Positions 7,845-56,697 are shown, counted from the first letter of the stretch. The stretch is DNA of 64,000 nucleotides from an uncultured Elusimicrobia bacterium (GCA_964482515.1 CAYZXT010000001.1:169373-233372); one strand, 5' to 3'. Translations and numbers: made by a program. The notes: a model not told the origin generated them from the letters alone.

Positions 7845-7917
7845 GCCGGGGTAGCTCAGCTGGTAGAGCAGCCGCTTCGTAAGCGGCAGGTCGTCGGTTC
7901 GATCCCGATCCCCGGCT
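7845..7917 (+). tRNA. tRNA-Thr (anticodon CGU)
   Basis: 73 nt. Acceptor GCCGGGG/CCCCGGC, D-arm GCTC-AGCTGGTAG-GAGC, anticodon stem GCCGC/GCGGC with loop TTCGTAA (anticodon CGT), T-arm GTCGG-TTCGATC-CCGAT, discriminator T. CCA not encoded. Confidence 0.9.
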
Positions 7918-30779: not shown

Positions 30780-31555
30780 ATACCAGGCTGAGCGCCATCG
30801 TCATTACCCGCAACGAGGAACGGGACCTGCCCGCCTGCCTGGACAGTCTGAAAGGCTGGGTGGACGAGATCGTCGTGGTGGACAATGATTCCACGGACCG
30901 GACGAAGGCGATCGCGGCAGACTACGGCGCCAAAGTTTTCGACCACGAGTTCGAAGGATACGGCCCGCAGAAACAGTTCGCCCTCGAGCAAGCCACGGGC
31001 GAATGGGTCCTCAACGTCGATGCGGACGAACGCGTGACGCCCGCCCTGATATCCGAGATCGACGTGCTGCTGAAGGCCTCCGGCAAAGAGAACCTGCCGA
31101 GCGGTTATTCCATTCCTTTTCAGGTTTTCTTCATGGGACGGAGGCTGCGCTTCGGCGGTTGTTTCCGCGAGTTCCACATCCGCCTGTTCAAACGCGACAA
31201 GGCCCGCTACGGCGGCTCGCGGATCCACGAAGGCATCGAGGTGGACGGCCCGCTCGGGAAATTGGCCCAGCCCATACGGCACGAAAGCTACCGCAATTTC
31301 GCCGAGTACCTGGAGAAGTGCCGGAGCTACACGGGCTTGATCGCGGCGAAGAAGTTCCGGGAGGGGAAGCGGTTTTCCGCGTGGCATAATCTCCGGCTTC
31401 CCTGGGAATTCTTCGTTCGTTACTTTTTGAAACTGGGTTTTCTGGACGGCCGGGCCGGCTTCGCCTACGCGGCGCTCAGCTCATTTTACGCTTGGCTCAA
31501 GCATGTCCGCCTGACGGATTACGAAAGAGGGGTGGCTGACGATGGCTTTCATTGA
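30776..31555 (+). CDS. Glycosyltransferase family 2 (LPS core GT2)
   Basis: ATGA overlap. LSAIVITRNEERDLPACLDSL...EIVVVDNDSTDRT...DADE (GT-A fold, DxD). Confidence 0.8.
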   Translation: MNTRLSAIVITRNEERDLPACLDSLKGWVDEIVVVDNDSTDRTKAIAADYGAKVFDHEFEGYGPQKQFALEQATGEWVLNVDADERVTPALISEIDVLLKASGKENLPSGYSIPFQVFFMGRRLRFGGCFREFHIRLFKRDKARYGGSRIHEGIEVDGPLGKLAQPIRHESYRNFAEYLEKCRSYTGLIAAKKFREGKRFSAWHNLRLPWEFFVRYFLKLGFLDGRAGFAYAALSSFYAWLKHVRLTDYERGVADDGFH

Positions 31556-32351
31556 AACCGCCGTTGTTGTCGGGGGGTTGGCGGCCTTGGGCGCTTCGGC
31601 CCGCTGGAACTGGTGGCGGCCGCGCGCGGACGGCGTTCCGATCCTGATGTACCACAAAGTCGGCGATCCGCCTCCGGGATCGAAATTGAAAAAGCTCTGG
31701 GTGTCCGTTCCCCAGTTTCGCCGCCAAATGGAATATTTGATACGCCACGGATACACGCCCATGACGTTGCGCGAGATCGGCGAAAAACGGCGCCGCCAGG
31801 AACCCATTCCCGCGTCCGCCATGGTCATCACCTTCGACGACGGCTACAAGAACAACTACGACACCGCGTTCCCGATCCTCAAGGAGTTCGGTTATAAGGC
31901 CGTGGTTTACGTGGTCGTCAACTCTCTCGAAAAAGAAAATTTCTGGCACGATCCGGCGTCGGAAACGCGGATCCCGATGCTCTCCTGGAAAGAGGCGGCG
32001 GAGATGCAGGCCTACGGGATCGAGATCGGCTCCCACACCATGAACCATCCGCGCCTGGCCAACCTGCCGGTCGAGAAGGCGCGGGAAGAACTTGAAATGA
32101 GCAAGAAGACCATCGGCGAGCGGCTGGGCCTCGACCCGGTCTCCTTCGCCTATCCCTACGGCAACGGCCAGGACAACGCGACGCTCCAGGACATGGCGCG
32201 GGACGCGGGGTATGAAACCGCCGTATCGGTCCACAGCGGACTGGGCGACTTTCAAAATGCGCCCTATTGCCTGAAACGGATTTTCGTCCGCGGCGACGAT
32301 TTCGACGTCGACTTCCACCTGAACATGACCCGGGGGCGCTCCCGCCTTTAA
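31542..32351 (+). CDS. Polysaccharide deacetylase (carbohydrate esterase family 4)
   Basis: ITFDDGYKNNYDTAFPILKE (TFDDG motif), EIGSHTMNHPRL (H-x-x-H), plus N-terminal TM/signal segment. Confidence 0.8.
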   Translation: MAFIETAVVVGGLAALGASARWNWWRPRADGVPILMYHKVGDPPPGSKLKKLWVSVPQFRRQMEYLIRHGYTPMTLREIGEKRRRQEPIPASAMVITFDDGYKNNYDTAFPILKEFGYKAVVYVVVNSLEKENFWHDPASETRIPMLSWKEAAEMQAYGIEIGSHTMNHPRLANLPVEKAREELEMSKKTIGERLGLDPVSFAYPYGNGQDNATLQDMARDAGYETAVSVHSGLGDFQNAPYCLKRIFVRGDDFDVDFHLNMTRGRSRL

Positions 32352-35294: not shown

Positions 35295-36389
35295 ATGGCG
35301 GATTTAATTCCCGTCGGTTACGGGCTCCGGAACTTTTCCGGCATGACGGGCGTGAGCCGCTACCTGCGCGAGGTGGCGCGGCGTCTCCCGCAGGCCGGTT
35401 TCGAGGCGCGGATCGCGACCCGGCGGCATGGAGCGTCGGAAAAGAGCCTGGCCGTTTCACAAGTTCCCTGGATCCCGTTGACCTCCTGGTCTCGCGCGGC
35501 GAGCTTCGATTATTTCGCCCGGCGGCGGTTGAAGTCCATGGGCGCGCGATTGGTCCACGGACTGGGCGACCTCACGCGTCAGGACATCGTCTCCGTTAAT
35601 AACTGCGACGCGGCGGCGGCCCGCTATGTTCCCGACGGACGGAAGCCCTCCGCGGGCGTGGACTACGTCCGCCGCGGACAGTTTTCGCCGGAGGGAAGCC
35701 GCGTCATCATCGCCATCTCCGACCTAGTGAGGCGCGACGTCGTCGAGTTCTACGGGGTCCCGCCCGAAAAGATCGTCCGGCTCTATTTCGGCGTCGATTT
35801 GGATAAGTTTCATCCCCGGCGGCGGAGCGGGTCGCGCGCGCGGCTGTTGAGCGCCGCGGGCTGGCCGGAGGAAACCAAGGTCGTTCTCTCGGTCCTGTCG
35901 GGCGATCCGGCCAAGCGGAATTTTTCCCTGTTGGCGCGCGCCGTCGAACGTTTGTCCGAGAAACATCCCGCAGCGCTTTGCGTGGTGGGGAACATCCCCT
36001 GGCAGAAAGACGAGGCGGCCGCGCGGCTCGCCGGCAAAAAAATCTTCCATCACGTCCCGGCCACGCCGCAGGTCGAGGACTACTACGCGGCGGCGGACGC
36101 CTTCGCCCTTCCGGCCCATTACGAGGAGTTCGGTTTGACGGTGCTCGAGGCCCTCGCCTCGGGCTGCCCCGTGGTTTCGAGCCGGCGCTGCGGGGCCTCC
36201 GAGCTTTTGGTAAAAGGCTATAATGGAGACGTTTTTGATGATATGAACGATCCCGAAGAATTGTCCGAATTATTGCGGGGGATTCTTTTTTCCGGCGGCG
36301 GTTACTCCGGCGCCCGGGCCACGGCTGAAAAATATTCCTGGGAGAAGCATGTGACCGATTTGACCGACATCTACCGGAAATTGTTGTGA
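35295..36389 (+). CDS. Glycosyltransferase family 4 (GT4)
   Basis: C-terminal ...YEEFGLTVLEALASGCPVVSS...GYNGDVFD... is a typical GT4 EX7E region. Confidence 0.75.
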   Translation: MADLIPVGYGLRNFSGMTGVSRYLREVARRLPQAGFEARIATRRHGASEKSLAVSQVPWIPLTSWSRAASFDYFARRRLKSMGARLVHGLGDLTRQDIVSVNNCDAAAARYVPDGRKPSAGVDYVRRGQFSPEGSRVIIAISDLVRRDVVEFYGVPPEKIVRLYFGVDLDKFHPRRRSGSRARLLSAAGWPEETKVVLSVLSGDPAKRNFSLLARAVERLSEKHPAALCVVGNIPWQKDEAAARLAGKKIFHHVPATPQVEDYYAAADAFALPAHYEEFGLTVLEALASGCPVVSSRRCGASELLVKGYNGDVFDDMNDPEELSELLRGILFSGGGYSGARATAEKYSWEKHVTDLTDIYRKLL

Positions 36390-37609
36390 GCGGAGTTCAA
36401 TCCCTCCACTCTTTTCGACGGCTTGCCCTTGGCCTGACCGCGGCCTGCCTACCGATCTCCATCGCCGCTTCCAATGTCTGCGGCGCCCTGGCCCTCGCGG
36501 CCTGTGTGGTGCTCCTGTTCGCCGATCCGTCACGGCGGGAATATCGTTGGACCGGTTTGGAAATACCCTGGTTGATCTATCTTTCCGTTTGGTTCGCCGC
36601 GTCGGCTTTGTCGCCGTCCCCCGCCCGCAGCCTGTCGAAATTGTCGGCCTATGTCACCATTTTGTTTTTCCTGCTGGCCTCTCAAGGTCAGGACAAGGAC
36701 GATCTGACGCGGAACGTCAAAATTTTTTTGGCCGCCTGCGGCGTGGCGGGACTCTGGGGCGTGCTGCAGTACGTTTCGGGCGCGGACTGGAATCCGGGGA
36801 CCAACCAATTGTCCCTTCCCGATTGGATGACGTCGCTGCCGTCGAGCCTGGCCCAGGCGTTGGCCACGCGGAACGGGCGGTCCCTGGGATTTTTCAGCCA
36901 CCCTCTCACCTACGCCGAGGTTCTGCTCGTAGGCTGGACCTTGAGCCTCGCCCAGATTTTTCAGCTTCACCGCAAGGCCGGGCCCTTCTGGCTGTTCGTC
37001 TTCTTCGCCACATCGGGAGGTCTGCTGTGCAGCGAGAGCCGCGGCGTTTGGCTTTCGATGTTCGTTCTGCTCGCCGTCTGGGGCGTCGTCCGCCGGAAGA
37101 AACGTGTCCTCATGGCCCTGGGTCTGTTGGTCGCGGCGGGAGGACTCCTGGTCGCATTCAATCCGAAAGTGCAGCACCGTGTGCAGAGCCTCCGACATGT
37201 CGCCGTGGATCCCTCCAGCAACATCCGTTTGGGGTTGTGGCGTGCGGCCGGCCGGGCGTTCGCCGAGCGTCCGGTTTTGGGCGTCGGGATGGGGAACGTC
37301 CGACTGGTATCCGGCGCAGGGCCGGAGCCCAATAAGGTTTGGTCGGAGACGCACAATATCTTCCTTCAGGCGGGCGTAGAAGCGGGGATCGTCGGCCTGG
37401 CCGCATTCTGCGGATTTCTTTTCGCGGCGGCACGGCTCCTTTGGCGGGCGTCCTCTCCCGGATGGCGCGACGGCCTATTCTTCGCGTTCGTCGGGATATT
37501 GTTCGCGGGGTTGACCGAATCCTGGATGCGCGACGCGGAAGTCATGATCGTGATGAATTTTATTCTGGGGAGCGCCGCCCTCGCGATGCGGAGGAAACAG
37601 GATGCCTAA
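36386..37609 (+). CDS. waaL: O-antigen ligase family protein (WaaL-like, Wzy_C domain)
   Basis: GTG start overlapping upstream stop (GTGA). About 10 TM helices and a large periplasmic loop (...SFFSHPLTYAEVLLVGW...CSESRGVW...ETHNIFLQ). Embedded in the core-LPS cluster. Confidence 0.7.
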   Translation: MSGVQSLHSFRRLALGLTAACLPISIAASNVCGALALAACVVLLFADPSRREYRWTGLEIPWLIYLSVWFAASALSPSPARSLSKLSAYVTILFFLLASQGQDKDDLTRNVKIFLAACGVAGLWGVLQYVSGADWNPGTNQLSLPDWMTSLPSSLAQALATRNGRSLGFFSHPLTYAEVLLVGWTLSLAQIFQLHRKAGPFWLFVFFATSGGLLCSESRGVWLSMFVLLAVWGVVRRKKRVLMALGLLVAAGGLLVAFNPKVQHRVQSLRHVAVDPSSNIRLGLWRAAGRAFAERPVLGVGMGNVRLVSGAGPEPNKVWSETHNIFLQAGVEAGIVGLAAFCGFLFAAARLLWRASSPGWRDGLFFAFVGILFAGLTESWMRDAEVMIVMNFILGSAALAMRRKQDA

Positions 37610-38150
37610 GCGGCCCGCCGTTTTCCTCGACCGCGACGGCACGTTGATGAAGGACGCCGTCTACGCGGACCATCCGGACGACGTGGATGTTTACCGCCGG
37701 GCGCCGGCCGCGCTCAGGCTTTTGCAGAAGGCCGGCTTTGCCTTGGTCGTCGTCACCAATCAGTCCGGACTCGGGCGCGGCTACTTCACGTGGGCGCAGC
37801 TTCGGCGCGTGCACGGCCGGTTGGACCAACTGTTGCGACGCCGGGGCGTTCGACTCGATGGGTTTTTCATTTGCCCGCACCGGCCGTCCGACGGATGCAA
37901 ATGCCGCAAGCCCAAGGTCGATCTCGTGAAACAGGCGGCGCGGAAATTGAATCTGGACCTGAAGGGTTCCGTCATGGTGGGCGACCGGGTTTTGGATCTG
38001 GAAATGGCCCGGAAACTGAAAATTTCGGGCGTCCGGGTTAGGACCGGCCACGGCTGGTCGGAAAAGCCCCGGGTGACCGGCGATTACGCCGGACGCGACC
38101 TCATGGACGCGGCCCGCTGGATCCTGGCCAAAAGAAGGGGTTCGCTTTAA
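37602..38150 (+). CDS. gmhB: D-glycero-D-manno-heptose 1,7-bisphosphate phosphatase
   Basis: HAD motif I AVFLDRDGTL, zinc-binding CPHRPSDGCKCRKPK, VGD..D motif. Confidence 0.9.
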   Translation: MPKRPAVFLDRDGTLMKDAVYADHPDDVDVYRRAPAALRLLQKAGFALVVVTNQSGLGRGYFTWAQLRRVHGRLDQLLRRRGVRLDGFFICPHRPSDGCKCRKPKVDLVKQAARKLNLDLKGSVMVGDRVLDLEMARKLKISGVRVRTGHGWSEKPRVTGDYAGRDLMDAARWILAKRRGSL

Positions 38151-40372
38151 TGGTTCCGAAGAAACCGGTTTTGTCCCGCACAAGTCCCGCCGTTTACGCC
38201 TGGCATGGTTTCCTGCTCGCGGCCCTCGTCCTCGTGCAGGGCGTTTATCTCCTTTGGTGGCTGCGCAACGACACCCGTCCGCCGGCCTGGGACGAGTCAC
38301 ACCATCTCCTGATCGCCGAGAATTACAGCCGCGCCATCGAGGACCGGAACTGGGAAGCCCTGGTCCGCCCCGTTTTTTCCAACTACCCGCCGCTCTATCA
38401 TCTCACCCTGTCTCCCTTCATGGATCGCTCGGAGGATGTGAACGCCGTCGTCAAGAAGGCCATCGGCGTCAACATCGGCTATCTGTGTTTGTTGATCGTG
38501 GCCGTCTATTTTCTGGGGGAAGCGCTTGTGTCGTCGGAGGCGGGGTTCTGCGCCGCGGCCATGGCGTCTTTCTCGCCGATCATGCTCTGGTTGGCGCACC
38601 GGCCCATGATCGACATGCCCTTGGCCGCCTGGGTGGCTCTGGCGTTGCTCTGCCTGGTGCAGTCCGATTATTTTGAGAAACCGTGGTGGAGCCTGGCTCT
38701 GGGACTTGCCTTCGGCGCGGGCATGATGACCAAGTGGTCCTTCATCGTTTACGCCGGCGTCCCCGTGGCCTGGGGATTCATCCGCGCTGTCATCGGCGGC
38801 CGGTGGCGGCCGATCCTCCTGTTCCTGCTCGGCGCCGTCGTCGTGGCGGGACCTTGGTACGCGTTCAACGGACTGCCTTCCGTCCTGAAAACGCAAAAAC
38901 TGGCGGCGATCAAGGAGGCGCGCGACCCGGCCCGCTGGAGTTTCGCGAGCGCCACCTGGTATCTGCGCGCCGCGGCCAACGACGGAATCATGTGGCCCAT
39001 GGCGCTGGCCGCCGTCGCCGGCATTGTGGCGGCCGTCCTCAGCGGGCGCTGGCTGCTTCTGACGTGGATGTTGGTTCCCCTGGTGTTTTTTAGCTCGGTG
39101 CAGAACAAGGACCTTCGCTATTACGTGCCGGCCCTGCCTTCCCTCGCTTTGATGATTGCGGCCGTGCCCGAGCGTTTTTCCGCCGGGTCGCGGCGGCTTT
39201 GGTTCATCGGCTGGACCGGCCTGGCTGTTTTCCTCGGCGTCGCCTACGGAACGGCGGACCGCTGGCCGGCCCCGCTTCAAAGGGCCGCGGCCTTCGCCGG
39301 GCTCGAACCTCTTTACAACATGCGACGCGCGCCGGGGAACCCTTCCGAGATGCACCACGACTATTCGTCGAAGGAAGACTGGAAGACCGACGAGATTTTA
39401 AAATTCATTCAAGACCGGTCCGTCGCAGGCAAACTCAGCCGGGTCAGCCTGATCAGCAACCATCCCTATTTCCAGACGTGGAACCTGCGTTTCGCGACGA
39501 AGGTCCGGGGGTGGAACGATATCGTCCTCTTCAACCCGAAACGCCGCTTGGGGGAATTCTCGGATTTCATCCTCTGGAAGACCGGGGACATGGGGCCGGA
39601 GTTCACGCTGGGTTACCTCGCGGACGCCGCCCGAATCCTGCAGGAACAGCCGCTCTGGCTGGAAAAAACCTTCACGCGCGTGATGCAATGGCCGCTGCCC
39701 GACGGCTCCCAGGCCGTCCTGTTCCAGCGCGACGTGAAAAGCGTGGCGTGGCCGTCGGCGCTGGGCGAAGTGGTTTTCGAGCTGAAACAATTCCCACTGC
39801 CCCGCTTCGAAGCAGAGGGGCTTCGCGTCCACCTCGTCCCCGCCTCCGCGGGCCAGGCGAAAAAGGGTGAATTCACTCGAATTGTTATAGAATGTGACCG
39901 CCTCGATTATCGCGGATTGGTTTTGGAAAGCGTCCGGATAGACGGCCGGGACGTCCAGATCAATTTACCGAGGCTGCTGGAAAATAGGGAGCTGCTCTTT
40001 CTCCGGGTGGGGGAACTCCGGCCGTCGGTCCAGATCGGCGGCGAGACCCTGGTCCGGTATCTTCAAGCGAGGGCCCGCTGGTTGCGCGACCCGCGGGTGG
40101 CGCTGGAAGACGGTCTTGTCCGCGTATCGGGGCGCGCGCATGGATTGCCTTTGAACGTGTCGGCCCGGGCGGAACTCTCCCCGACGCGCGACGCGGTGAC
40201 GCTGACCTTGGATTCGGCGCGGATCGGCCCGGTTCCGCTCCCGCTGTTTTTAATCCGCGCTTATACGTGCAAGACGTTTTCTCTGGATCCGTCAAAGGAT
40301 CTGCAGTTTCCAGTTCGCATGGACGAACTGACTATCAAAAATGGTCTGCTGACCGTGAGGAGTTCTTCGTGA
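38150..40372 (+). CDS. ArnT/PMT-like (GT39/GT83-type) polytopic glycosyltransferase fused to a ~350-aa C-terminal extracytoplasmic domain of unknown function
   Basis: N-terminal ~390 aa with about 10 TM helices and a first-loop acidic motif (WDESHH). C-terminal half is soluble with no recognised motifs. Confidence 0.55.
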   Translation: MVPKKPVLSRTSPAVYAWHGFLLAALVLVQGVYLLWWLRNDTRPPAWDESHHLLIAENYSRAIEDRNWEALVRPVFSNYPPLYHLTLSPFMDRSEDVNAVVKKAIGVNIGYLCLLIVAVYFLGEALVSSEAGFCAAAMASFSPIMLWLAHRPMIDMPLAAWVALALLCLVQSDYFEKPWWSLALGLAFGAGMMTKWSFIVYAGVPVAWGFIRAVIGGRWRPILLFLLGAVVVAGPWYAFNGLPSVLKTQKLAAIKEARDPARWSFASATWYLRAAANDGIMWPMALAAVAGIVAAVLSGRWLLLTWMLVPLVFFSSVQNKDLRYYVPALPSLALMIAAVPERFSAGSRRLWFIGWTGLAVFLGVAYGTADRWPAPLQRAAAFAGLEPLYNMRRAPGNPSEMHHDYSSKEDWKTDEILKFIQDRSVAGKLSRVSLISNHPYFQTWNLRFATKVRGWNDIVLFNPKRRLGEFSDFILWKTGDMGPEFTLGYLADAARILQEQPLWLEKTFTRVMQWPLPDGSQAVLFQRDVKSVAWPSALGEVVFELKQFPLPRFEAEGLRVHLVPASAGQAKKGEFTRIVIECDRLDYRGLVLESVRIDGRDVQINLPRLLENRELLFLRVGELRPSVQIGGETLVRYLQARARWLRDPRVALEDGLVRVSGRAHGLPLNVSARAELSPTRDAVTLTLDSARIGPVPLPLFLIRAYTCKTFSLDPSKDLQFPVRMDELTIKNGLLTVRSSS

Positions 40373-40926
40373 TCGGACGATGGCGAGTTTTTTTCGGGTT
40401 TGTGGCGGGATTTTTGTTTCTCTTTCTTTCCCACGCGGCTTCCTGGCCGCGGGTTTGGGCGGGGTTGGCGCTTTCGTTCATCGGGCTGCTCGTCCGCGCC
40501 TGGGCCGCCGGTTATTTGGAGAAGGGCAAGCGGCTGGCCCAGGACGGTCCTTACTCCTTCATTCGCCACCCGCTTTACGCCGGAAGTTTCCTCCTGGCTC
40601 TGGGTTTTTGCGTCGCGGGCACGGGGTCCTTCCGAACCTGGCACGGCGCGGTCCTTTGGGTCGTTTTCGTTGTCCTGTTTTTCGGAGTCTATCCGAAACG
40701 GATCCGCGAGGAGGAGGCCACGCTTGAGGCGCACTTCGGCGATCCCTGGCGCGAGTTTGTCCGTCTGCGGAAGCGCTTCCTTCCCCGCTTGTCGCCCGTT
40801 CGCCGCGACAATCCCGATACCTTCGTTCTGGCCCGCTACATCAAGAACACCGAATATAACGCCTTCATCGGCTGGCTGGCCGGCGTGGCCGTGATCCTTT
40901 TCAAGGCATTCCAAGAATTGGGATAA
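40369..40926 (+). CDS. ICMT/PEMT-family membrane methyltransferase (isoprenylcysteine carboxyl methyltransferase-like)
   Basis: GTG 40369 overlaps the upstream stop (GTGA); alternative ATG 40267 would overlap by 106 nt. Hallmark motifs IRHPLYAGSFLLALG and C-terminal EE...L...FG..W..F. Confidence 0.75.
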   Translation: MIGRWRVFFGFVAGFLFLFLSHAASWPRVWAGLALSFIGLLVRAWAAGYLEKGKRLAQDGPYSFIRHPLYAGSFLLALGFCVAGTGSFRTWHGAVLWVVFVVLFFGVYPKRIREEEATLEAHFGDPWREFVRLRKRFLPRLSPVRRDNPDTFVLARYIKNTEYNAFIGWLAGVAVILFKAFQELG

Positions 40927-41762
40927 TGACCGCCGGCCTCGTTCGATTCCTGCGCAGGCAACCCACGGGGTTGTTGCTTCCTTTGCTTCTGTTGTCCATC
41001 CCCTCCCTGGCGGAGACCCCCGCTTTCATCTGGCGGAGCCGGCCCAACGCGGCTTTTCAAGTCGGCGAGTCCATTCTTTATGTGATCAAGTACGGGATCG
41101 TTCCCTCCGGTTTCGCGACGCTGGAAATCCCCAATGAAGAGATGGTCGGCGACCGCAAGGCTTTCCATATTGTCTCCCGCGCCAAAACCAACAAGGGAAC
41201 GGACGTTTTTTTTAAGGTGCGGGACGTGAATGAATCGTGGATGGACGTGGAGAGCCTTTGCTCTCTCCGGTTTTATCAGCATTTAAGGGAAGGACTGCAT
41301 GAGCGGCTCACCCGGACTGAATACGATCACCCCAACGGAAAATTCATTTTTTGGAAGCGCCGCAAAGGGAAGGAAACCACGAACGAAGGCGGAATGCCGC
41401 CCTATGTTCAGGATGTCCTTTCCAGCCTTTATTACATCCGCACCCAGGAGTTGGAGGTGGGGAAGGATTACGCCCTGGACGCCAATTCCAGCGGCAAAAC
41501 CTGGCCGTTAAAGGTCCATGTGGAAAAGATCCAGACCATCAAAGTCCCGGCGGGGAGGTTTGAATGTTATAAGGTGGAACCTATCCTGGCGGGGGACGGC
41601 ATCTTTCAGCAGAAGGGCAAGCTGGAGGTCTGGTTGACGCGTGATGAGCGCAAAATCCCGGTGCTTTTGAGGTCCCGGGTCATGGTGGGGGCCTTTGACG
41701 CGGAGATGCAGGCATACCGCCCGGACGGTTCCGGTGAGGACCCCGCCGCCAGGGCTTTTTGA
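40926..41762 (+). CDS. Secreted protein, DUF3108-like
   Basis: ATG overlaps the upstream TAA. Signal peptide (LLLPLLLLSIPSLA/ET). Beta-rich; block YVQDVLSSLYYIRTQ resembles the DUF3108 signature as I recall it (not certain). Confidence 0.5.
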   Translation: MTAGLVRFLRRQPTGLLLPLLLLSIPSLAETPAFIWRSRPNAAFQVGESILYVIKYGIVPSGFATLEIPNEEMVGDRKAFHIVSRAKTNKGTDVFFKVRDVNESWMDVESLCSLRFYQHLREGLHERLTRTEYDHPNGKFIFWKRRKGKETTNEGGMPPYVQDVLSSLYYIRTQELEVGKDYALDANSSGKTWPLKVHVEKIQTIKVPAGRFECYKVEPILAGDGIFQQKGKLEVWLTRDERKIPVLLRSRVMVGAFDAEMQAYRPDGSGEDPAARAF

Positions 41763-41865: not shown

Positions 41866-42483
41866 ATGACAACAAAGGCATTTTCTAAGAAAGAGGCGTT
41901 GCAGTTCGGTTGGAACACCATGAAAACCAACGTGGGGTTCTTCATCGGATTGCTCCTGATCGTTTGGGCTATTTCCGTTATCCCGGGCATCATTAATAAT
42001 TTCGTCAAGGTCACGGCCGTCGCCCTGATCGTGGCCATCGTCTTCCGGTTCATCCAATGGTTTCTGGAGATCGGCCTCATCAAGATCAGCCTGGCTTTTG
42101 TGGACGGGAAAACGCCGGCCATTCCGGAGCTGTTTTCCGGCAAAGAGGTTTATTGGAAATACGTCGGCGGCACCATCCTCTACGGGTTGATCGTCTTCGG
42201 CGGCATCCTGCTGTTGATCGTGCCGGGGATCATCTGGTCCATCCAGTTCTTTTTCTACAGCTACCTGATCGTGGAAAAGGGAATGAAGCCCATCGACGCC
42301 TTGAAGGCCAGCTCGGCCATGACCAAGGGGCATAAATGGGAATTGTTCCTCTTCGGCTTGATCACGCTCGGCGTCAATTTGCTCGGCGCCCTCTGCTTGC
42401 TGGTCGGGCTTTTCGCCACCGTCCCCACGACTTTGGTGGCCCTGGCGACGATCTACCGCAAGCTGTCCAACCAGAACGCTTAG
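41866..42483 (+). CDS. Integral membrane protein of unknown function (5-6 TM), compositionally atypical
   Basis: 205 aa. Lower GC and different codon usage from its neighbours. Own promoter region and a strong downstream terminator. Confidence 0.7.
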   Translation: MTTKAFSKKEALQFGWNTMKTNVGFFIGLLLIVWAISVIPGIINNFVKVTAVALIVAIVFRFIQWFLEIGLIKISLAFVDGKTPAIPELFSGKEVYWKYVGGTILYGLIVFGGILLLIVPGIIWSIQFFFYSYLIVEKGMKPIDALKASSAMTKGHKWELFLFGLITLGVNLLGALCLLVGLFATVPTTLVALATIYRKLSNQNA

Positions 42484-42515: not shown

Positions 42516-42557
42516 CCGCCCATTCGGGGTTCGCCCCGGGTGGGCGGTTCTTTTGTG
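42516..42557 (+). terminator. Rho-independent terminator
   Basis: ccgccca-(nested cgggg ttcg ccccg hairpin)-tgggcgg followed by ttcttttgtg. Confidence 0.75.
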
Positions 42558-51012: not shown

Positions 51013-51041
51013 TTGACATAGGGGTTTCGTGGGACTACACT
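51013..51041 (+). promoter_or_regulatory. Sigma70-like promoter for the pilin-like three-gene island
   Basis: TTGACA-17 nt-TACACT located 42 nt upstream of ATG 51083, in a 175-nt AT-rich spacer after lptB. Confidence 0.45.
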
Positions 51042-51082
51042 TGTTGAGACGAAGGGGTAAAATCCGTTTACACAGGTCGCCC

Positions 51083-52423
51083 ATGTCTAAAGCCGCTAAC
51101 TCAATGTTTTTGCGATTGCTCGCTCTCTTTAATCCGACCGGTCCGGGTCGGTCGAATTTATTCCGCCCTGTCGCCGCAGAGACCGGCTCCGTCGTCGTTC
51201 TCATTGTCATGCTCATCAGCCTCCTGGCTTTTATTCCCGTCGGGACTCAGTTGGTGAAGATGGCCCGCCAAAATATCGGGCTTCAGCTGCATTCCACCGT
51301 CCAAGCCGACAACGTGGCCCGCGCCGGCTTGACGGACGCCGTCGCCTGGTTCCGCCGCCAAACAACCCAACCTGTGCGGAATTTGGGAACCCCCTATCCG
51401 GACGCGGCATTCGCCCCGGTCGACAGTGGCGACCCCGACGACACCGACACGATAGATGCGGCCATCGGACTGGTGAAGGAATACGACTTGGGAGAATCGA
51501 ACAACCTCTGGGCGCGTTATGAAGTGCGGCGCCAGGCTGTGGACAACGTTGCCGATCCCTCGGCCAACGATCCGCACGCCGTGCACGACATCACGCTCCT
51601 GCGCTTGCAAGGGTCGACCGATACATTGAACGGCGGGGGGCTGGCCTGGTATATCGAAAGCGTGGGGTATGTTTATCGCCGAAGGGACCCGTCCGTGGCT
51701 TACAACGTCGCTCCCAACGAGATCGTCGGCCGGTCGCGCGTGGCCACGGAAATCCGGCGCGTCGCCTTGAACCGCGCGGAAGCCAACGCCGCGGTGGTGA
51801 TCACCAGCCGCGGCAGCGGCACCATCAATACCAATTGCCGGGTCGTGGGGGGCAGCACCGCCTACGGCGTCGCCTATTGCGGCGGCTCCGGCGGGACATG
51901 GGGGAACTCATCCACGCCTGTGCGCACGTCGGGAACCACGGCGTGGAATTACAGCATCACGTCGGGCGCCTTCAATACGAGCTTGGACATTCAGTCTCTC
52001 TTCGGCGTGACCCCCTATGAGCTGAAGCTCATGGCGGACTACAGCGTGTCCACCGTTGCCCAATTGCCGAGCGATTATCCATCGGCGTCCTTGGTTTTCA
52101 TCGACGGTCCGGCGACGTTCGACGACCCTCGTCCCTTAAGGGGCGGCGGGATTCTCTTCGTCAACGGCAACCTCACTCTCTCCGGCTTGAGCACCAACAC
52201 CCATATTTTCAGCGGGCTGATCTATGTCAACGGCAACTGCACCATCACCGGGCCCGCCACGATCTCGGGAACGCTCTGGGTGACGGGCAGCCTCACGATG
52301 AGTGGCGGCAGCGACGTCGCGGAAGTCCTTTTTGACGGCGATATCCTGACCGCCGTCCAACAGCAGGTGGGCCAGTACCGCGAGAACAAGTCCGCCTATC
52401 ACGTTTTCTCGGCGCAAAAATGA
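51083..52423 (+). CDS. PilX/GspK-like pilus-associated protein (N-terminal hydrophobic PilX_N-like segment, C-terminal parallel-beta-repeat region)
   Basis: Start moved to ATG 51083 because ORF-track ATG 51029 lies inside the predicted promoter. N-terminus GSVVVLIVMLISLLAFIPVGTQLVKMARQNIGLQLHSTVQADNVARAGLTDAVAWFRR parallels the PilX/GspK N-terminal architecture, with no G/FxxxE cleavage motif. C-terminal repeats GGGILFVNGNLTLSG / GLIYVNGNCTITG / GTLWVTGSLTMSGG. Confidence 0.6.
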   Translation: MSKAANSMFLRLLALFNPTGPGRSNLFRPVAAETGSVVVLIVMLISLLAFIPVGTQLVKMARQNIGLQLHSTVQADNVARAGLTDAVAWFRRQTTQPVRNLGTPYPDAAFAPVDSGDPDDTDTIDAAIGLVKEYDLGESNNLWARYEVRRQAVDNVADPSANDPHAVHDITLLRLQGSTDTLNGGGLAWYIESVGYVYRRRDPSVAYNVAPNEIVGRSRVATEIRRVALNRAEANAAVVITSRGSGTINTNCRVVGGSTAYGVAYCGGSGGTWGNSSTPVRTSGTTAWNYSITSGAFNTSLDIQSLFGVTPYELKLMADYSVSTVAQLPSDYPSASLVFIDGPATFDDPRPLRGGGILFVNGNLTLSGLSTNTHIFSGLIYVNGNCTITGPATISGTLWVTGSLTMSGGSDVAEVLFDGDILTAVQQQVGQYRENKSAYHVFSAQK

Positions 52424-55400
52424 AAAATAAACGTCCCGCTCATCTCGGCGAAAAAGGGTTCACCCTGGTGGAGGTCGTCATCGCCATGGTCGTCCTAAGC
52501 GTTGTGGCATTGGGCAGCATGAAGGCTTTCTGGTTCATCAGCCAGCAAAACGTGATCGTGAACAAGCGGTCTTTCGCGGCTCAAAAAGCCGTTCAGATGA
52601 TCGAGGAACTCAGGGGCCTCATCGCGGACGCGGACACGGAGATCGGGGTCCTCGATAACTACGACAACGGCAGCGGCTATAAATACACCTTGTCGACCCG
52701 TTCGGAAGTGAATGCGAACCTCTCCACGGTCGACCCCGGCGATCTGCCGGGCGATCCCATCAGCGGAAACAGCGGATTGAAATTCAAGCGCCAAGTCCGC
52801 GTGCTGCAGATGCCGAACGAAGAGTTGGCCCGGCGGGTCTATGTGCGCGTTTACGATAGCGGGAACAACGAAGTCCTCGCCGAGACCGTCAGCGTGTTGC
52901 GCAGCGTCCGAAACCAGTTCTATCCCACCCAGGAGTACGATGTCTATGTCCTCAGCCTGGAAAACGTTCCGGGGTGGTGGAGCGCCTTGTCCACCCTTCA
53001 GCCCACGTTCGACAGCATGGTGGAGGACCTGAAGGTCCGCAATCCGGGGCTTAACCTGAGGGTCCATTACATCACCCGATTGGCCTACGGGCGCGACCCG
53101 TTTTACATGCCGTACACCAACGACGCCACGCGCGCGGACAACGTCGCGTCACCCTGGGTTTATTTCTATCCGGGCAACGTGGATCGACCCAGTGTCGGGG
53201 ATTTTTATTATTACGTGCCTGACGGGTTCCAGGGGCGGATCAACATAGACGGCACAGTCGTCAACCCGAATTCGTACAGCATCGCCGATCAATACAACCA
53301 GGCGGTGCGCTATCCGGATGAGGAGTCCCTCTATGCTGCGGCGGTGGCTTCGGCCGCGGCCACCGGCACGACGGCGCCTGAAATCAGTTTGCGCATGCTG
53401 TGGGAGCGCATGATCACAAGCTCGGACACCTATCGCAACCTGTTCGTGGTGAACCTGCACGGAGAGCTGCTGCCTTTGCCGCCCATGCGCAACTATTCGG
53501 ACGCGGCGAAGGCGCCGATGGTTTCCACATACACCAACGTCCGCGCTGTGACCCACCCCGAAAGGTTGCAGTATGCCTCCGGCAGCCAGGTGAACCTGCG
53601 CGTGTACACGTACGTGATGGATCCTACCAATGCGGCATGGACGGATACTTCTTCCACTACACTGAACATCCTGATCAGCACGCCGCTCATTTCGGGCAAC
53701 GTCACCGTCCGGAAAGTCACCGGCAATTCCGGCGCAAATTACGCATGGGGAGCCGCCTCGGCCGGCACCGATTATGTCTTTTCAAATCCGACGCCTGCCA
53801 CCACCCTCATCACTCTTTTCAACAGTCCTCTCAGACATGCCGAGGCCGGCAACGGGACAGGTCTTCGCTCAACGCACCGTTTGCACGGCCTGGAATATAT
53901 TCCAAGTCCGCTGGCCGGTAGCGGGGCTTCCTTCGCGGAAGGAGACAAGGACCTGGCGGATCCGGACGACGACGATGATCCCCATAACACCGCCCGCTGG
54001 GTGATCCAAATCGCCGCCGGCGCTTTGAGCAATGGGATGCATACCTTTGAAACCCGCCTGGGCGACGATTACACCACGGGCACTTCCACCAACCAGCCTA
54101 CGAATATTTCCCGCACCTATACGTGGGTGGGAACCACGGCGCCCGCGACGGAAAAATATCAGTTCATGGGCGATCCCCGCCATATGCCCTATGTCGATGT
54201 CAAGGCTGAGCTGGGATACAATTGGTACTTCAACAATGCCACCTTCGTGTCTGGCGATTACCCGGGCTATACCAACGTCCAGAACCGTTGGAACGGGACG
54301 GCGAACGTGGACATCCCGCGCTACATGCAGGCCCTGCGCACCGGGCTCATGAACGCAGAAGGGATTTGGACCAGCATGACGGGTTTTTCCAATTACTATG
54401 TGGGGCTGGGCGGCGAGATCGGTTATGACGCCTCCAACGGGTTCTCCAACAGCATCGATATCGTGGGAACGCCTTGGAACAACGCGGGCACCATCGGCGT
54501 CCAGGAAATCACCAGCGGGGCCGGTTCTTCCTCCGAGAACTATTCCCGGATCATTTCCAGCGATAACAACAACTGGTGGGGACTTTACTGGCTGGGCGAA
54601 CTCTACCCGGACAGCGCCTACTCCCTTTGGAGTTCCAGCGGGAACCTTCCCGTGGGCACTAACCAATATTACCGGCGACGCTTCAACGGAGTGACCGGAT
54701 TCGCCGCAAGCGAAGTCCAGAAGCGCCTCTCCGAGAGAGGCTCCTCGTCTTTCTTCAACGGGAACCCGTCCGGGAACGACAGTTCCTGGTTCAACCACCA
54801 GTACCGGGACGGCAACGGCGCGACCCTGACCGTCATCGGATCGACGGTGGCCGCGGACTTCAACTTTCCGCTTTTAAGCAGCATGAACGCCGACCGGCCT
54901 TTTCTGTTGAACATGACCGACACGAGCCGCCGGCCGGACGAGTGGAACCTGGCGCCCTACAACGTGACGTCCGGAGCGTCGCGGCAGCGGACCACGCTCA
55001 GCACCTTCGAAACGTGGTACGAAACGACCGGATATACATCGACGGAAGATTCCAGCGCTTTGCTCAGGTTCCACCTGGGAGCTGGCACGCGCGTGGGCAA
55101 CGTGGTCATGAACGGCCTTTCGCCCACCGGCAGTTTCGGCAACTCCCAGATCGCCAAACTTTGTTTAACCAACCAGCTTCGGGCCTTCATGACCCTCGGC
55201 AGCCCCGCCGCGACCCAGGGGGCCATCGCGCAAGTGCCGTTGGTGTCCATCACTTCGCCGACCGTGTCCAGCGAGCTTCCTCTCACTGTTACGAGCATCA
55301 ACGTAACCTGGTCCACCGCCTGGACGCGTTGGGACGGCGCCCCTTACACGAGCGCTTATGCGGGGTATGCGTCGCCGCCCGGCATGGGGTATAATGTGAA

Positions 55401-55617
55401 ATATTCGGTCGACAACGGCCAAACCTGGAGGTTCGTCAACACGGGGCTTTCGGCGACAGCCGGCGTTTACTCCGCCGCGAATGCGGTCACTAGCCCGGTC
55501 ACCTGGGACGTGTCGGCCTTCGGCGCCGGGACCTATATACTACGCGTAGAAGGCTATCGAAACAACTTGCCCATGCATTATTCCCACCATCAAAGAAGGG
55601 TGTACATCCGGCGTTAG
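52420..55617 (+). CDS. Giant (1065 aa) prepilin-type protein: class III signal + N-methylation motif followed by ~1000-aa extracellular region with an Asp-box (BNR) motif
   Basis: ATGA overlap with the upstream gene. Leader MKNKRPAHLGEK-G/FTLVEVVIAMVVLSVVALG (Gly-1, Glu+5). Very Asn/Ser/Thr/Gly/Tyr/Trp-rich body. Asp-box SVDNGQTW near the C-terminus. Confidence 0.75.
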   Translation: MKNKRPAHLGEKGFTLVEVVIAMVVLSVVALGSMKAFWFISQQNVIVNKRSFAAQKAVQMIEELRGLIADADTEIGVLDNYDNGSGYKYTLSTRSEVNANLSTVDPGDLPGDPISGNSGLKFKRQVRVLQMPNEELARRVYVRVYDSGNNEVLAETVSVLRSVRNQFYPTQEYDVYVLSLENVPGWWSALSTLQPTFDSMVEDLKVRNPGLNLRVHYITRLAYGRDPFYMPYTNDATRADNVASPWVYFYPGNVDRPSVGDFYYYVPDGFQGRINIDGTVVNPNSYSIADQYNQAVRYPDEESLYAAAVASAAATGTTAPEISLRMLWERMITSSDTYRNLFVVNLHGELLPLPPMRNYSDAAKAPMVSTYTNVRAVTHPERLQYASGSQVNLRVYTYVMDPTNAAWTDTSSTTLNILISTPLISGNVTVRKVTGNSGANYAWGAASAGTDYVFSNPTPATTLITLFNSPLRHAEAGNGTGLRSTHRLHGLEYIPSPLAGSGASFAEGDKDLADPDDDDDPHNTARWVIQIAAGALSNGMHTFETRLGDDYTTGTSTNQPTNISRTYTWVGTTAPATEKYQFMGDPRHMPYVDVKAELGYNWYFNNATFVSGDYPGYTNVQNRWNGTANVDIPRYMQALRTGLMNAEGIWTSMTGFSNYYVGLGGEIGYDASNGFSNSIDIVGTPWNNAGTIGVQEITSGAGSSSENYSRIISSDNNNWWGLYWLGELYPDSAYSLWSSSGNLPVGTNQYYRRRFNGVTGFAASEVQKRLSERGSSSFFNGNPSGNDSSWFNHQYRDGNGATLTVIGSTVAADFNFPLLSSMNADRPFLLNMTDTSRRPDEWNLAPYNVTSGASRQRTTLSTFETWYETTGYTSTEDSSALLRFHLGAGTRVGNVVMNGLSPTGSFGNSQIAKLCLTNQLRAFMTLGSPAATQGAIAQVPLVSITSPTVSSELPLTVTSINVTWSTAWTRWDGAPYTSAYAGYASPPGMGYNVKYSVDNGQTWRFVNTGLSATAGVYSAANAVTSPVTWDVSAFGAGTYILRVEGYRNNLPMHYSHHQRRVYIRR

Positions 55618-55626
55618 GCCCATCCC

Positions 55627-56697
55627 ATGTCGACTTTCCGGATTTTCTTAAAAAAAACATTCAAATCCATTACGCGGATTGCCGGCGGCGAGCGGGGAAT
55701 CACCTTCGTGGAAGTTCTAATCACGGGCGCGCTGGTCGCCGTCCTGGTTTTGTCCGTTGTGCCGCTCTTCAATGTCACCAGCCGGGGTTTCACCAGTTTG
55801 GAGGTCAATACCGTGCTTTCCTCGGGATCGCAGGCGGCGCTGAACAAAATACAGCACCGGCTCGTGGAAAGCAAGCGGATATTCGGCAACACCGCCAGCG
55901 ACAACGCCTTCCTGGCCAAAGTGACGTTCAGCGGCGCTCCCTCCGTTTTGTCGGGCAGCAAGTTGCCGGTAATTGTTTCTACGGCATCCATTTCACCGAG
56001 CAGCGCGACGTTCAACGCTGCCAACGTGGGGAACAGCCTTTTTTTCGCGAGCTTGGACTCCACGGCGGATTTCGACGACATCGCCGTGTCCGGCGGTACG
56101 CAGGGAATCCGGATCGATACCTATGTCTTCAATTATTACTACCTCAGCCCTGATTCGTCCCAAACCATCGGCGGAAGCGCCGTGAGGCGATTGTGGGAAT
56201 GGCACAGCGTCCGCTACGCTGACTACATACAGATCGTGAATATCACCGACACGACGAAACGCACAAACACCATCACAGCCCTTAAAAATTCCGGGATAGA
56301 TTATGCGTGGTGTTCTTCGGCCACCGTTGCGACATCCGCTTTCTACACTTTAACCGCCGGCAACGCGAACCCCGGAGCCAGTTCGGGTCATTCGATCCCC
56401 AAAGCCTCCGGCAGTAATTCCCAGAAAAATATGCTTCAGTTGGTCCGCGGCGTCACCACGGGCGGCTTCCGTTATTCCGTATCGCCCAACACCAGCGGGA
56501 GTTTCAACCCGAAACATACCGTGCCGGTATACGGCATGGCGTCGGGGAATTTTCCTTCGGGGTTTGAGGTGCTGGTCGTGGGCCCCAGCGGTACCCGGCA
56601 GGTGTTCATGCGCCTTGTGCTGGCAGCCCAGGGTAGTTTCAAAGGATTCCTGTCAAACGATCAGACGGTGCTGGTGACGACGAGGGATGTGTGGTGA
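55627..56697 (+). CDS. Pilin/pseudopilin-like protein (356 aa) with long leader
   Basis: ...ITRIAGGERG/ITFVEVLITGALVAVLVLSVV (Gly-1, Glu+5) after a 24-aa leader. Ser/Thr/Gly/Asn-rich beta-type C-terminal domain. Confidence 0.65.
   Translation: MSTFRIFLKKTFKSITRIAGGERGITFVEVLITGALVAVLVLSVVPLFNVTSRGFTSLEVNTVLSSGSQAALNKIQHRLVESKRIFGNTASDNAFLAKVTFSGAPSVLSGSKLPVIVSTASISPSSATFNAANVGNSLFFASLDSTADFDDIAVSGGTQGIRIDTYVFNYYYLSPDSSQTIGGSAVRRLWEWHSVRYADYIQIVNITDTTKRTNTITALKNSGIDYAWCSSATVATSAFYTLTAGNANPGASSGHSIPKASGSNSQKNMLQLVRGVTTGGFRYSVSPNTSGSFNPKHTVPVYGMASGNFPSGFEVLVVGPSGTRQVFMRLVLAAQGSFKGFLSNDQTVLVTTRDVW

Follow-up and report, generated by a model that had tools for sequence, protein, structure and literature searches.

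Separable ICMT–DUF3108 and ArnT-like GT-C–LmeA modules predicted to decorate lipopolysaccharide in an uncultured Elusimicrobia bacterium

A 64,000-nt stretch of DNA from an uncultured Elusimicrobia bacterium (62% G+C; the whole stretch is called the window below) carries a lipopolysaccharide (LPS) supercluster in which three consecutive genes encode a 740-amino-acid (aa) membrane glycosyltransferase of the GT-C superfamily with a long C-terminal extension, a 185-aa membrane methyltransferase of the ICMT class that uses S-adenosylmethionine (SAM), and a 278-aa exported DUF3108 protein. A preliminary description regarded them as a triad acting at the periplasmic face that may give lipid A or the inner core a novel decoration, which raises the question of whether these genes really constitute one machine. 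The comparative evidence points to two separable and independent LPS decorations instead, an LmtA-like methylation coupled to the DUF3108 protein and an ArnT-like periplasmic glycosylation, a reading to which we give a probability of roughly 55%. Each component is of a known kind, namely an ArnT-like GT-C, an LmeA domain, an ICMT/LmtA-type methyltransferase and DUF3108. The three co-directional open reading frames (ORFs) reported at this place are real, each having a significant family match and homologues in other genomes.

Gene order was read in related loci (L-numbers below; related proteins of the comparative set carry P-numbers) by tblastn with the window proteins together with precomputed gene calls. 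The three genes stand together in the window, L002, L004, L015, L017 and L019, with the GT-C gene placed between Wzy_C or GmhB and the methyltransferase gene. The methyltransferase and DUF3108 genes occur without GT-C in L011, L012, L014, L016, L018, L021, L024, L046, L048 and L083, and in GT-C-less loci the methyltransferase gene directly follows Wzy_C, LpxL or GmhB. GT-C and DUF3108 occur without the methyltransferase in L090, L117/L118 and L009, and GT-C stands without either partner in L115/L116, after Wzy_C in L115. All combinations of the three genes therefore exist, GT-C and the methyltransferase are mutually independent, and the triad cannot be an obligate one. From these distributions, DUF3108 is thus the constant element of the Elusimicrobiota clusters, and the methyltransferase and GT-C genes are separate optional inserts.

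The pairing of the methyltransferase with DUF3108 spans Elusimicrobiota, Acidobacteriota and Gemmatimonadota. Scanning the genome collection with an alignment of the methyltransferase yielded 80 loci, and DUF3108 was found within 2.5 kb of the methyltransferase in 31 of 81 loci with ICMT relatives. In a neighbour-joining tree all 31 DUF3108-bearing loci fell inside one clade of 50 leaves, 42 of which are flanked by DUF3108 and/or by lpxK, lpxL, waaA, gmhB or hldE-like genes; outside this clade, where the leaves belong mostly to Planctomycetota and Omnitrophota, DUF3108 was found in 0 of 31 and lipid A genes in 3 of 31. The two proteins are even fused in single ORFs in at least three lineages (L021 in Elusimicrobia, L029 and L050 in Blastocatellia, and P0147, all verified by reading frame and Pfam), and in the L021 fusion the last transmembrane helix continues into the mature barrel with no separate signal peptide. 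The pairing and the gene fusions argue for a physical partnership in which the barrel would be periplasmic. Such cross-phylum pairing and fusion beside lipid A genes appears not to be described in the searchable literature. Loci of Gemmatimonadota have their own gene order, with DUF3108, a 353-aa protein without Pfam family (L043, 8836-9897) and the methyltransferase lying about 2 kb downstream of lpxL.

The 185-aa protein was rightly assigned to the ICMT class with RHPxY and EE motifs: it matches Pfam ICMT (E = 1.4e-8, 35.5 bits vs 24) and, with a similar score, PEMT, and its RHPLY (residues 66–70) and E115/E116 are invariant in 28 orthologues. The same 28 orthologues begin with MIxRWRVF, which backs the GTG start at 40369 over a longer ORF of 219 aa. 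Among the NCBIfam models, the protein matches that of Leptospira LmtA, TIGR04571, best (E = 5e-12, 46 bits, residues 33–174), and the methyltransferase profile aligns with the SAM-binding half of Ma-ICMT (PDB 4a2n; E = 1e-7). The protein thus shares with Ste14/ICMT enzymes the fold, the SAM-binding C-terminal half and the RHPxY and EE motifs, but it differs from them in its LPS gene context, with no prenylated-protein pathway around it. With LmtA of Leptospira interrogans it shares the nature of an ICMT/Ste14-type SAM-dependent membrane methyltransferase and the tie to lipid A genes, although the LmtA model has 252 positions against 185 aa here, and no DUF3108 partner or fusion has been described for LmtA.

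The side of the membrane on which these proteins act is where the preliminary description stands only in part. The conserved residues and C-terminal domains of the GT-C protein are predicted to be periplasmic, as described below, whereas SAM is a cytoplasmic cofactor and the two motif-bearing loops of the methyltransferase, rich in lysine and arginine (4 and 13 such residues), are predicted to be cytoplasmic on that account, with the last hydrophobic helix running outward; a methyltransferase acting at the periplasmic face is therefore unsupported. As for the suggested novelty of a methylated lipid A phosphate, LmtA is already known to produce one in Leptospira (PMC4402001, PMC10248169), and a 2023 survey described methylated lipid A phosphate as unique to that genus (PMC10248169).

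The 278-aa protein matches DUF3108 (PF11306) over almost the whole model (E = 1.2e-41, 143.3 bits vs 26, model positions 2–208 of 209). Its signal-like N-terminus (residues ~1–29, ending ...SLA/ET, no lipobox) and a predicted all-beta barrel of about 15 strands (predicted local distance difference test, pLDDT, 90.6) agree with the earlier view of a secreted, beta-rich, DUF3108-like protein. The fold neighbours of the model are lipid-carrier barrels, including LolA, LolB, RseB and LmcA, and a search of PDB sequences with the single sequence gave nothing meaningful. DUF3108 has been described as a YmcC-fold protein (PDB 3FZX) of enigmatic function (PMC4364669), and the family is named in only five papers of the searchable literature. 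The barrel resembles LolA/LolB/LppX/RseB/LmcA-type barrels and the YmcC-like fold, with the difference that a lipobox is not present here. Fusions of LysM with DUF3108 (P0217–P0219, P0222 and P0246; 354–385 aa) indicate a periplasmic location, and suggest a peptidoglycan-proximal one. Another fusion protein, the 477-aa P0220, combines a GmhB-like HAD phosphatase, a transmembrane segment and DUF3108 in one protein.

We infer from these observations that the methyltransferase and the exported barrel could form a physical pair that is the conserved core of the system. The methyltransferase, binding SAM on the cytoplasmic side, would carry out an O-methylation in the inner leaflet, on an anionic group that belongs to lipid A or to the inner core, before MsbA flips the molecule; the precedent for this proposal is the methylation of the lipid A 1-phosphate by LmtA in Leptospira. 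Its last transmembrane helix would lead to the periplasm, where DUF3108 may bind the lipid part of the substrate or product.

The second module is the 740-aa protein, for which the class ArnT/PMT given in the preliminary description is borne out by structure search, profile match and conserved polar residues. It matches the Pfam models PMT_2 (PF13231; E = 1.3e-7, 32.4 bits vs a gathering score of 26.1) and PMT (PF02366; E = 6.8e-7, 29.5 bits vs 22.7), which also take in ArnT-type proteins. An AlphaFold model based on 17 homologues (pLDDT 88.4; predicted template modelling score 0.84) suggests a helical membrane domain up to residue ~385, an alpha/beta domain at ~413–527 and a beta-rich domain at 541–737. 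The membrane domain is multi-pass and of GT-C fold, with conserved acidic residues in what is predicted to be the first extracytoplasmic loop, as is typical of the superfamily. In Foldseek, the top match of the model is ArnT of Cupriavidus metallidurans (E = 5e-9), followed by ALG12, ALG9, STT3, Pmt4, AftA and PglB. At the sequence level, a single-sequence search against PDB gave chance-level matches only, and the family profile compared with all PDB sequences has ArnT as its only match (E = 0.003), the alignment pairing the Asp of the family's IDxPLAAW and the Tyr of its NKDLRY with the Asp of LDMTLAG and the Tyr of LPGY in ArnT.

Conserved positions of the 740-aa protein include W47-D48-E49, immediately following the first transmembrane helix and invariant in 10 homologues, with D48 retained in most of the distant ones, as well as D155, K195 and N319–R323 (within N319-K-D-x-R-Y324), which are invariant or nearly so. 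Given a lysine- and arginine-rich N-terminus and an odd number (~11) of transmembrane helices, D48/E49, D155, K195, N319–Y324 and the C-terminal 370 aa are all predicted to lie on the periplasmic side. The protein is, as classed by its sequence relationships, an ArnT-like GT-C glycosyltransferase. The label GT39 is unsupported, because no MIR domain was matched at E<=0.01 in Pfam (in the model, the corresponding loop is short) and no PMT is among the sequence-level relatives, ArnT being the sole sequence-detectable solved relative. The likeness to ArnT (PmrK; GT83) lies in the GT-C fold and in the Foldseek and profile matches, and differences include an identity of 14–16%, an additional LmeA-like domain of ~200 aa and the lack of arn-type donor genes in the window; the score against the ArnT equivalog model NF009784 (21.3 bits vs a cut-off of 567) indicates that the protein is not an ArnT orthologue.

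The C-terminal ~350 aa, left as unknown in the preliminary description, can be resolved into the alpha/beta domain and an LmeA-like domain, the latter matching PF11209 at residues 569–737 above the gathering score (E = 3e-13, 50.8–53.1 bits vs 27.3, model positions 40–215 of 217). The alpha/beta domain carries the conserved motifs EDWK, NHPYF, GEFSDFILxK and WPLPDGS, is the best-conserved part of the protein (56–58% identity vs 45–48% in the membrane domain, compared with L002 and L004/L005), and occurs also in a wider set of GT-C proteins of ~530 aa. Exhaustive phmmer with residues 400–740 retrieved 221 cluster representatives, 124 of them at E<=1e-10, most of them 680–790 aa long and matching at ~370–720; this matching size indicates that the GT-C and LmeA architecture is, as far as its sequence relatives tell, a stable though uncharacterised family rather than a one-off fusion. 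The LmeA of mycobacteria resides in the periplasm, binds phospholipids and has features of Chorein-N and TULIP proteins; it maintains MptA, a polyprenyl-phosphate-mannose-dependent GT-C (PMC7643837, PMC6791001). The present protein resembles LmeA (Rv0817c/MSMEG_5785) by the PF11209 match and has LmeA and GT-C partners in one chain; it differs from the LmeA/MptA system in that the LmeA-like domain is a C-terminal fusion, the host belongs to the LPS-producing Elusimicrobiota, and the GT-C is ArnT-like rather than MptA. Such a GT-C–LmeA fusion family in LPS clusters appears not to be described in the searchable literature.

ArnT is the undecaprenyl-phosphate-4-amino-4-deoxy-L-arabinose (L-Ara4N):lipid A transferase, and analogues transfer other sugars, such as FlmK of Francisella (galactosamine), LgmB of Bordetella (glucosamine) and RgtA–D of Rhizobium (galacturonic acid). 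The observation that arnA/B/C/D are absent is upheld, since none was found among the scanned window ORFs, where the search for Ara4N donor genes of the arnA/B/C/D/E/F type was likewise negative, and since the GT2 has no ArnC match and the CE4 deacetylase no ArnD match. This GT2 and CE4 pair was considered as an ArnC/ArnD- or LgmA/LgmC-like donor path and rejected, the GT2 having no transmembrane helix and neither protein its counterpart's match; the pair is also present in the GT-C-less loci L012, L014, L016 and L018, so that it was rejected as a donor path of the GT-C too. The two genes overlap by 14 nt and are kept in 12 related Elusimicrobiota LPS clusters, with or without GT-C. The GT2 may resemble cytoplasmic core transferases of the WaaE/KdtX type, and the pair may provide a de-N-acetylated core sugar. 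Candidates for the sugar transferred by the GT-C itself include mannose, a uronic acid and an amino sugar.

We further infer that this accessory ArnT-like GT-C would move a sugar from a polyprenyl-phosphate donor to lipid A or the core at the periplasmic face, with the fused LmeA-like domain acting as a built-in holder of the acceptor or donor lipid, in the way that free LmeA supports MptA. More specifically, and only as a tentative proposal that we would sooner bet against than for, the methyltransferase and DUF3108 may work as a two-compartment machine, in which lipid A or another LPS anion is methylated by a cytoplasm-facing enzyme and the product is then caught, inspected or passed on by a LolA-like periplasmic barrel tethered to that enzyme, and the GT-C–LmeA fusion may represent an LmeA-type domain acting directly on a GT-C.

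Distant members of the GT-C/LmeA family (24–28% identity) adjoin manC, manB and manA. In L006 (10001-12148) and L007 (10001-12352) the distant GT-C gene is divergent from manC, manA, manB, a second nucleotidyltransferase gene and a SAM synthetase gene, with a class I methyltransferase gene near, and in L007 a heptosyltransferase and a GT2 come after the GT-C gene, a second PMT_2 protein lying near. A scan of the genome collection with a 10-sequence GT-C alignment gave distant relatives only. Some other relatives bear a second membrane protein of GT-C type beside the module: in L009 it is a DUF2079 protein (9891-11555) between the GT-C and DUF3108 genes, in L090 a PMT_2 protein of 503 aa (12808-14319, minus strand) convergent with the DUF3108 gene. 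L090 also has a waaA fused to a DUF374 domain (1-1639; 646-aa product vs the 428-aa WaaA of the window).

Alternative explanations can be weighed against this background. One obligate pathway at the periplasmic face, in which the GT-C adds a sugar, the ICMT-type enzyme methylates or methyl-esterifies and DUF3108 serves as accessory, would fit the stop-to-start overlap of the three genes in the window and their synteny at 40–50% identity in the five other loci that have all of them (L002, L004, L015, L017 and L019). We nevertheless consider it very unlikely, given the close relatives that have the methyltransferase and DUF3108 without GT-C, or GT-C and DUF3108 without the methyltransferase, and given SAM loops predicted in the cytoplasm for a GT-C product that is made in the periplasm. 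It is also unlikely, though less decidedly so, that the GT-C/LmeA protein is PMT- or MptA-like, using polyprenyl-phosphate-mannose to glycosylate proteins or an envelope glycan other than LPS, and came to lie in the LPS cluster through a general clustering of envelope genes: in all relatives (31–79% identity) with enough flank, the gene immediately follows Wzy_C or GmhB within a cluster of lipid A/core genes, Pfam gave no MIR domain match, and at the sequence level ArnT is the sole PDB match.

The pair of methyltransferase and DUF3108 might alternatively act on a lipid other than LPS, such as a phospholipid, polyprenyl phosphate or a substrate related to lipoproteins. DUF3108 would then serve as a carrier in the manner of LolA, and the link to lipid A would arise from the clustering of genes for outer-membrane biogenesis. 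The similar PEMT and ICMT Pfam scores, the LolA and LolB among the fold neighbours of DUF3108, and the lack of LPS context in 28 of 31 distant ICMT homologues outside the DUF3108-linked clade are consistent with this possibility, as is the prenylcysteine methyltransferase model discussed below. However, the DUF3108-linked clade adjoins lpxK, lpxL, waaA, gmhB and heptosyltransferase genes in three phyla, and the LmtA match is the longer and slightly better one, so that we regard a non-LPS lipid substrate as quite unlikely.

Several points weigh against the reading of two separable LPS decorations. Against the LmtA model the methyltransferase reaches 46 bits, far short of the cut-off of 325, and the model for prenylcysteine methyltransferases follows closely with 41 bits. 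The ICMT tree is a rough one of tblastn segments and holds no Leptospira LmtA sequence. The conserved charged residues of DUF3108 (E48, R99, D100, E122, D163 and R172) could be the sign of an enzymatic role in place of passive lipid binding. On the side of the glycosyltransferase, neither a synthase nor a flippase for a polyprenyl-phosphate sugar turned up in the 64-kb window, and the distant GT-C relatives lie beside GDP-mannose genes, not lipid A genes.

The features of the three-gene region and of the GT2 and CE4 pair are given in Table 1. According to Pfam and NCBIfam scans of the window, the LPS supercluster extends over ~26.3–50.9 kb with all genes on one strand, starting with waaA, a GT9 heptosyltransferase gene, two GT4 genes, GT2, the CE4 deacetylase and a second GT9, and continuing with lpxK, an lpxL-like gene, a GT4, a Wzy_C/O-antigen-ligase-like gene and gmhB, then the three genes under study. 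The latter had been called the terminal module of the cluster, all coupled by 4 nt, and neither statement applies: the DUF975 gene, the terminator-like hairpin, an hldE-like kinase gene, kdsB, pyrG, kdsA, kdsD, lptA and lptB come after them, and the overlaps are TAATG at 38150 (1 nt, gmhB stop with GT-C start), GTGA at 40369 (4 nt, GT-C stop with methyltransferase start) and TAATG at 40926 (1 nt). The transcription unit probably ends with the DUF975 gene, which is found also 3' of DUF3108 in L014, L016, L018 and L019, and the hairpin after this gene is the strongest terminator-like hairpin of the region.

Table 1. Positions of the genes, protein domains and terminator-like hairpin discussed in the text, counted from the first nucleotide of the window
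Feature	Position	Strand	Basis or remark
GT2, 259 aa, no transmembrane helix	30776-31555	+	
CE4 polysaccharide deacetylase, 269 aa, N-terminal transmembrane helix, PgaB/IcaB-like	31542-32351	+	
GmhB, D,D-heptose 1,7-bisphosphate phosphatase	37602-38150	+	NCBIfam NF006506, E = 4e-47; upstream neighbour
GT-C/LmeA protein, 740 aa	38150-40372	+	ORF and Pfam
GT-C transmembrane glycosyltransferase domain, aa 1-390, ~11 transmembrane helices	38150-39319	+	
Alpha/beta (mid) domain, aa ~400-530, predicted periplasmic	39347-39739	+	Without Pfam family
LmeA-like domain (PF11209, formerly DUF2993), beta-rich, aa ~541-737	39770-40360	+	
ICMT-fold SAM-dependent membrane methyltransferase, 185 aa, GTG start	40369-40926	+	Pfam, NCBIfam, PDB profile, orthologues
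DUF3108 protein, 278 aa, signal peptide then ~15-strand beta-barrel	40926-41762	+	
DUF975 membrane protein	41866-42483	+	Pfam DUF975, E = 2e-12
Intrinsic-terminator-like hairpin	42516-42547	+	14-bp stem, 11 GC pairs, T-rich tail

The 103-bp spacer between the DUF3108 and DUF975 genes has a G+C content of only 31%. A promoter scan remained at chance level (3 found vs 2.8 expected), and Rfam and tRNA scans gave no match in the three-gene region; across the window, a tRNA-Thr (CGT) at 7845-7917 (plus strand) was the sole RNA gene that they detected. A recent arrival of the module by horizontal transfer was rejected, the G+C content at third codon positions being uniform (0.70–0.86) throughout the cluster. 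Elsewhere in the window, two adjacent plus-strand genes (9436-12207 and 12141-14639) encode proteins of 923 and 832 aa with a Wzy_C/O-antigen-ligase-like membrane domain and long C-terminal TPR arrays, making, with the Wzy_C gene at 36386-37609, a total of three ligase-like genes. A 1065-aa protein (52420-55617, plus strand) has an N-terminal prepilin-type methylation motif and otherwise no Pfam match, and its neighbours (51029-52423 and 55627-56697) have no Pfam family.

The combination of cross-phylum pairing, gene fusion and LPS gene context gives DUF3108, a widespread family, a testable context in LPS loci, in a methyltransferase partnership and in periplasmic tethering, and if the proposed role holds, it would be the first function for this family. 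The methyltransferase module predicts methylation of a lipid A/LPS phosphate or carboxylate outside Leptospira, to which the survey confined it (PMC10248169), and if the two-compartment proposal holds, methylated lipid A would be widespread in uncultured diderm phyla; methylated LPS outside Leptospira, as implied here, appears not to be described in the searchable literature. The fusion of GT-C with LmeA independently backs the mycobacterial proposal that LmeA-type domains cooperate with polyprenyl-phosphate-sugar-dependent GT-C enzymes and extends it to LPS producers, and, if our reading is true, would be a 'Rosetta stone' for a direct action of LmeA-type lipid-transfer domains on GT-C enzymes. 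Until now, lipid A decorations like those predicted have been described mostly in Leptospira and in polymyxin-resistance systems, and charge-masking changes of this kind bear on outer-membrane permeability, cationic-peptide resistance and innate-immune recognition.

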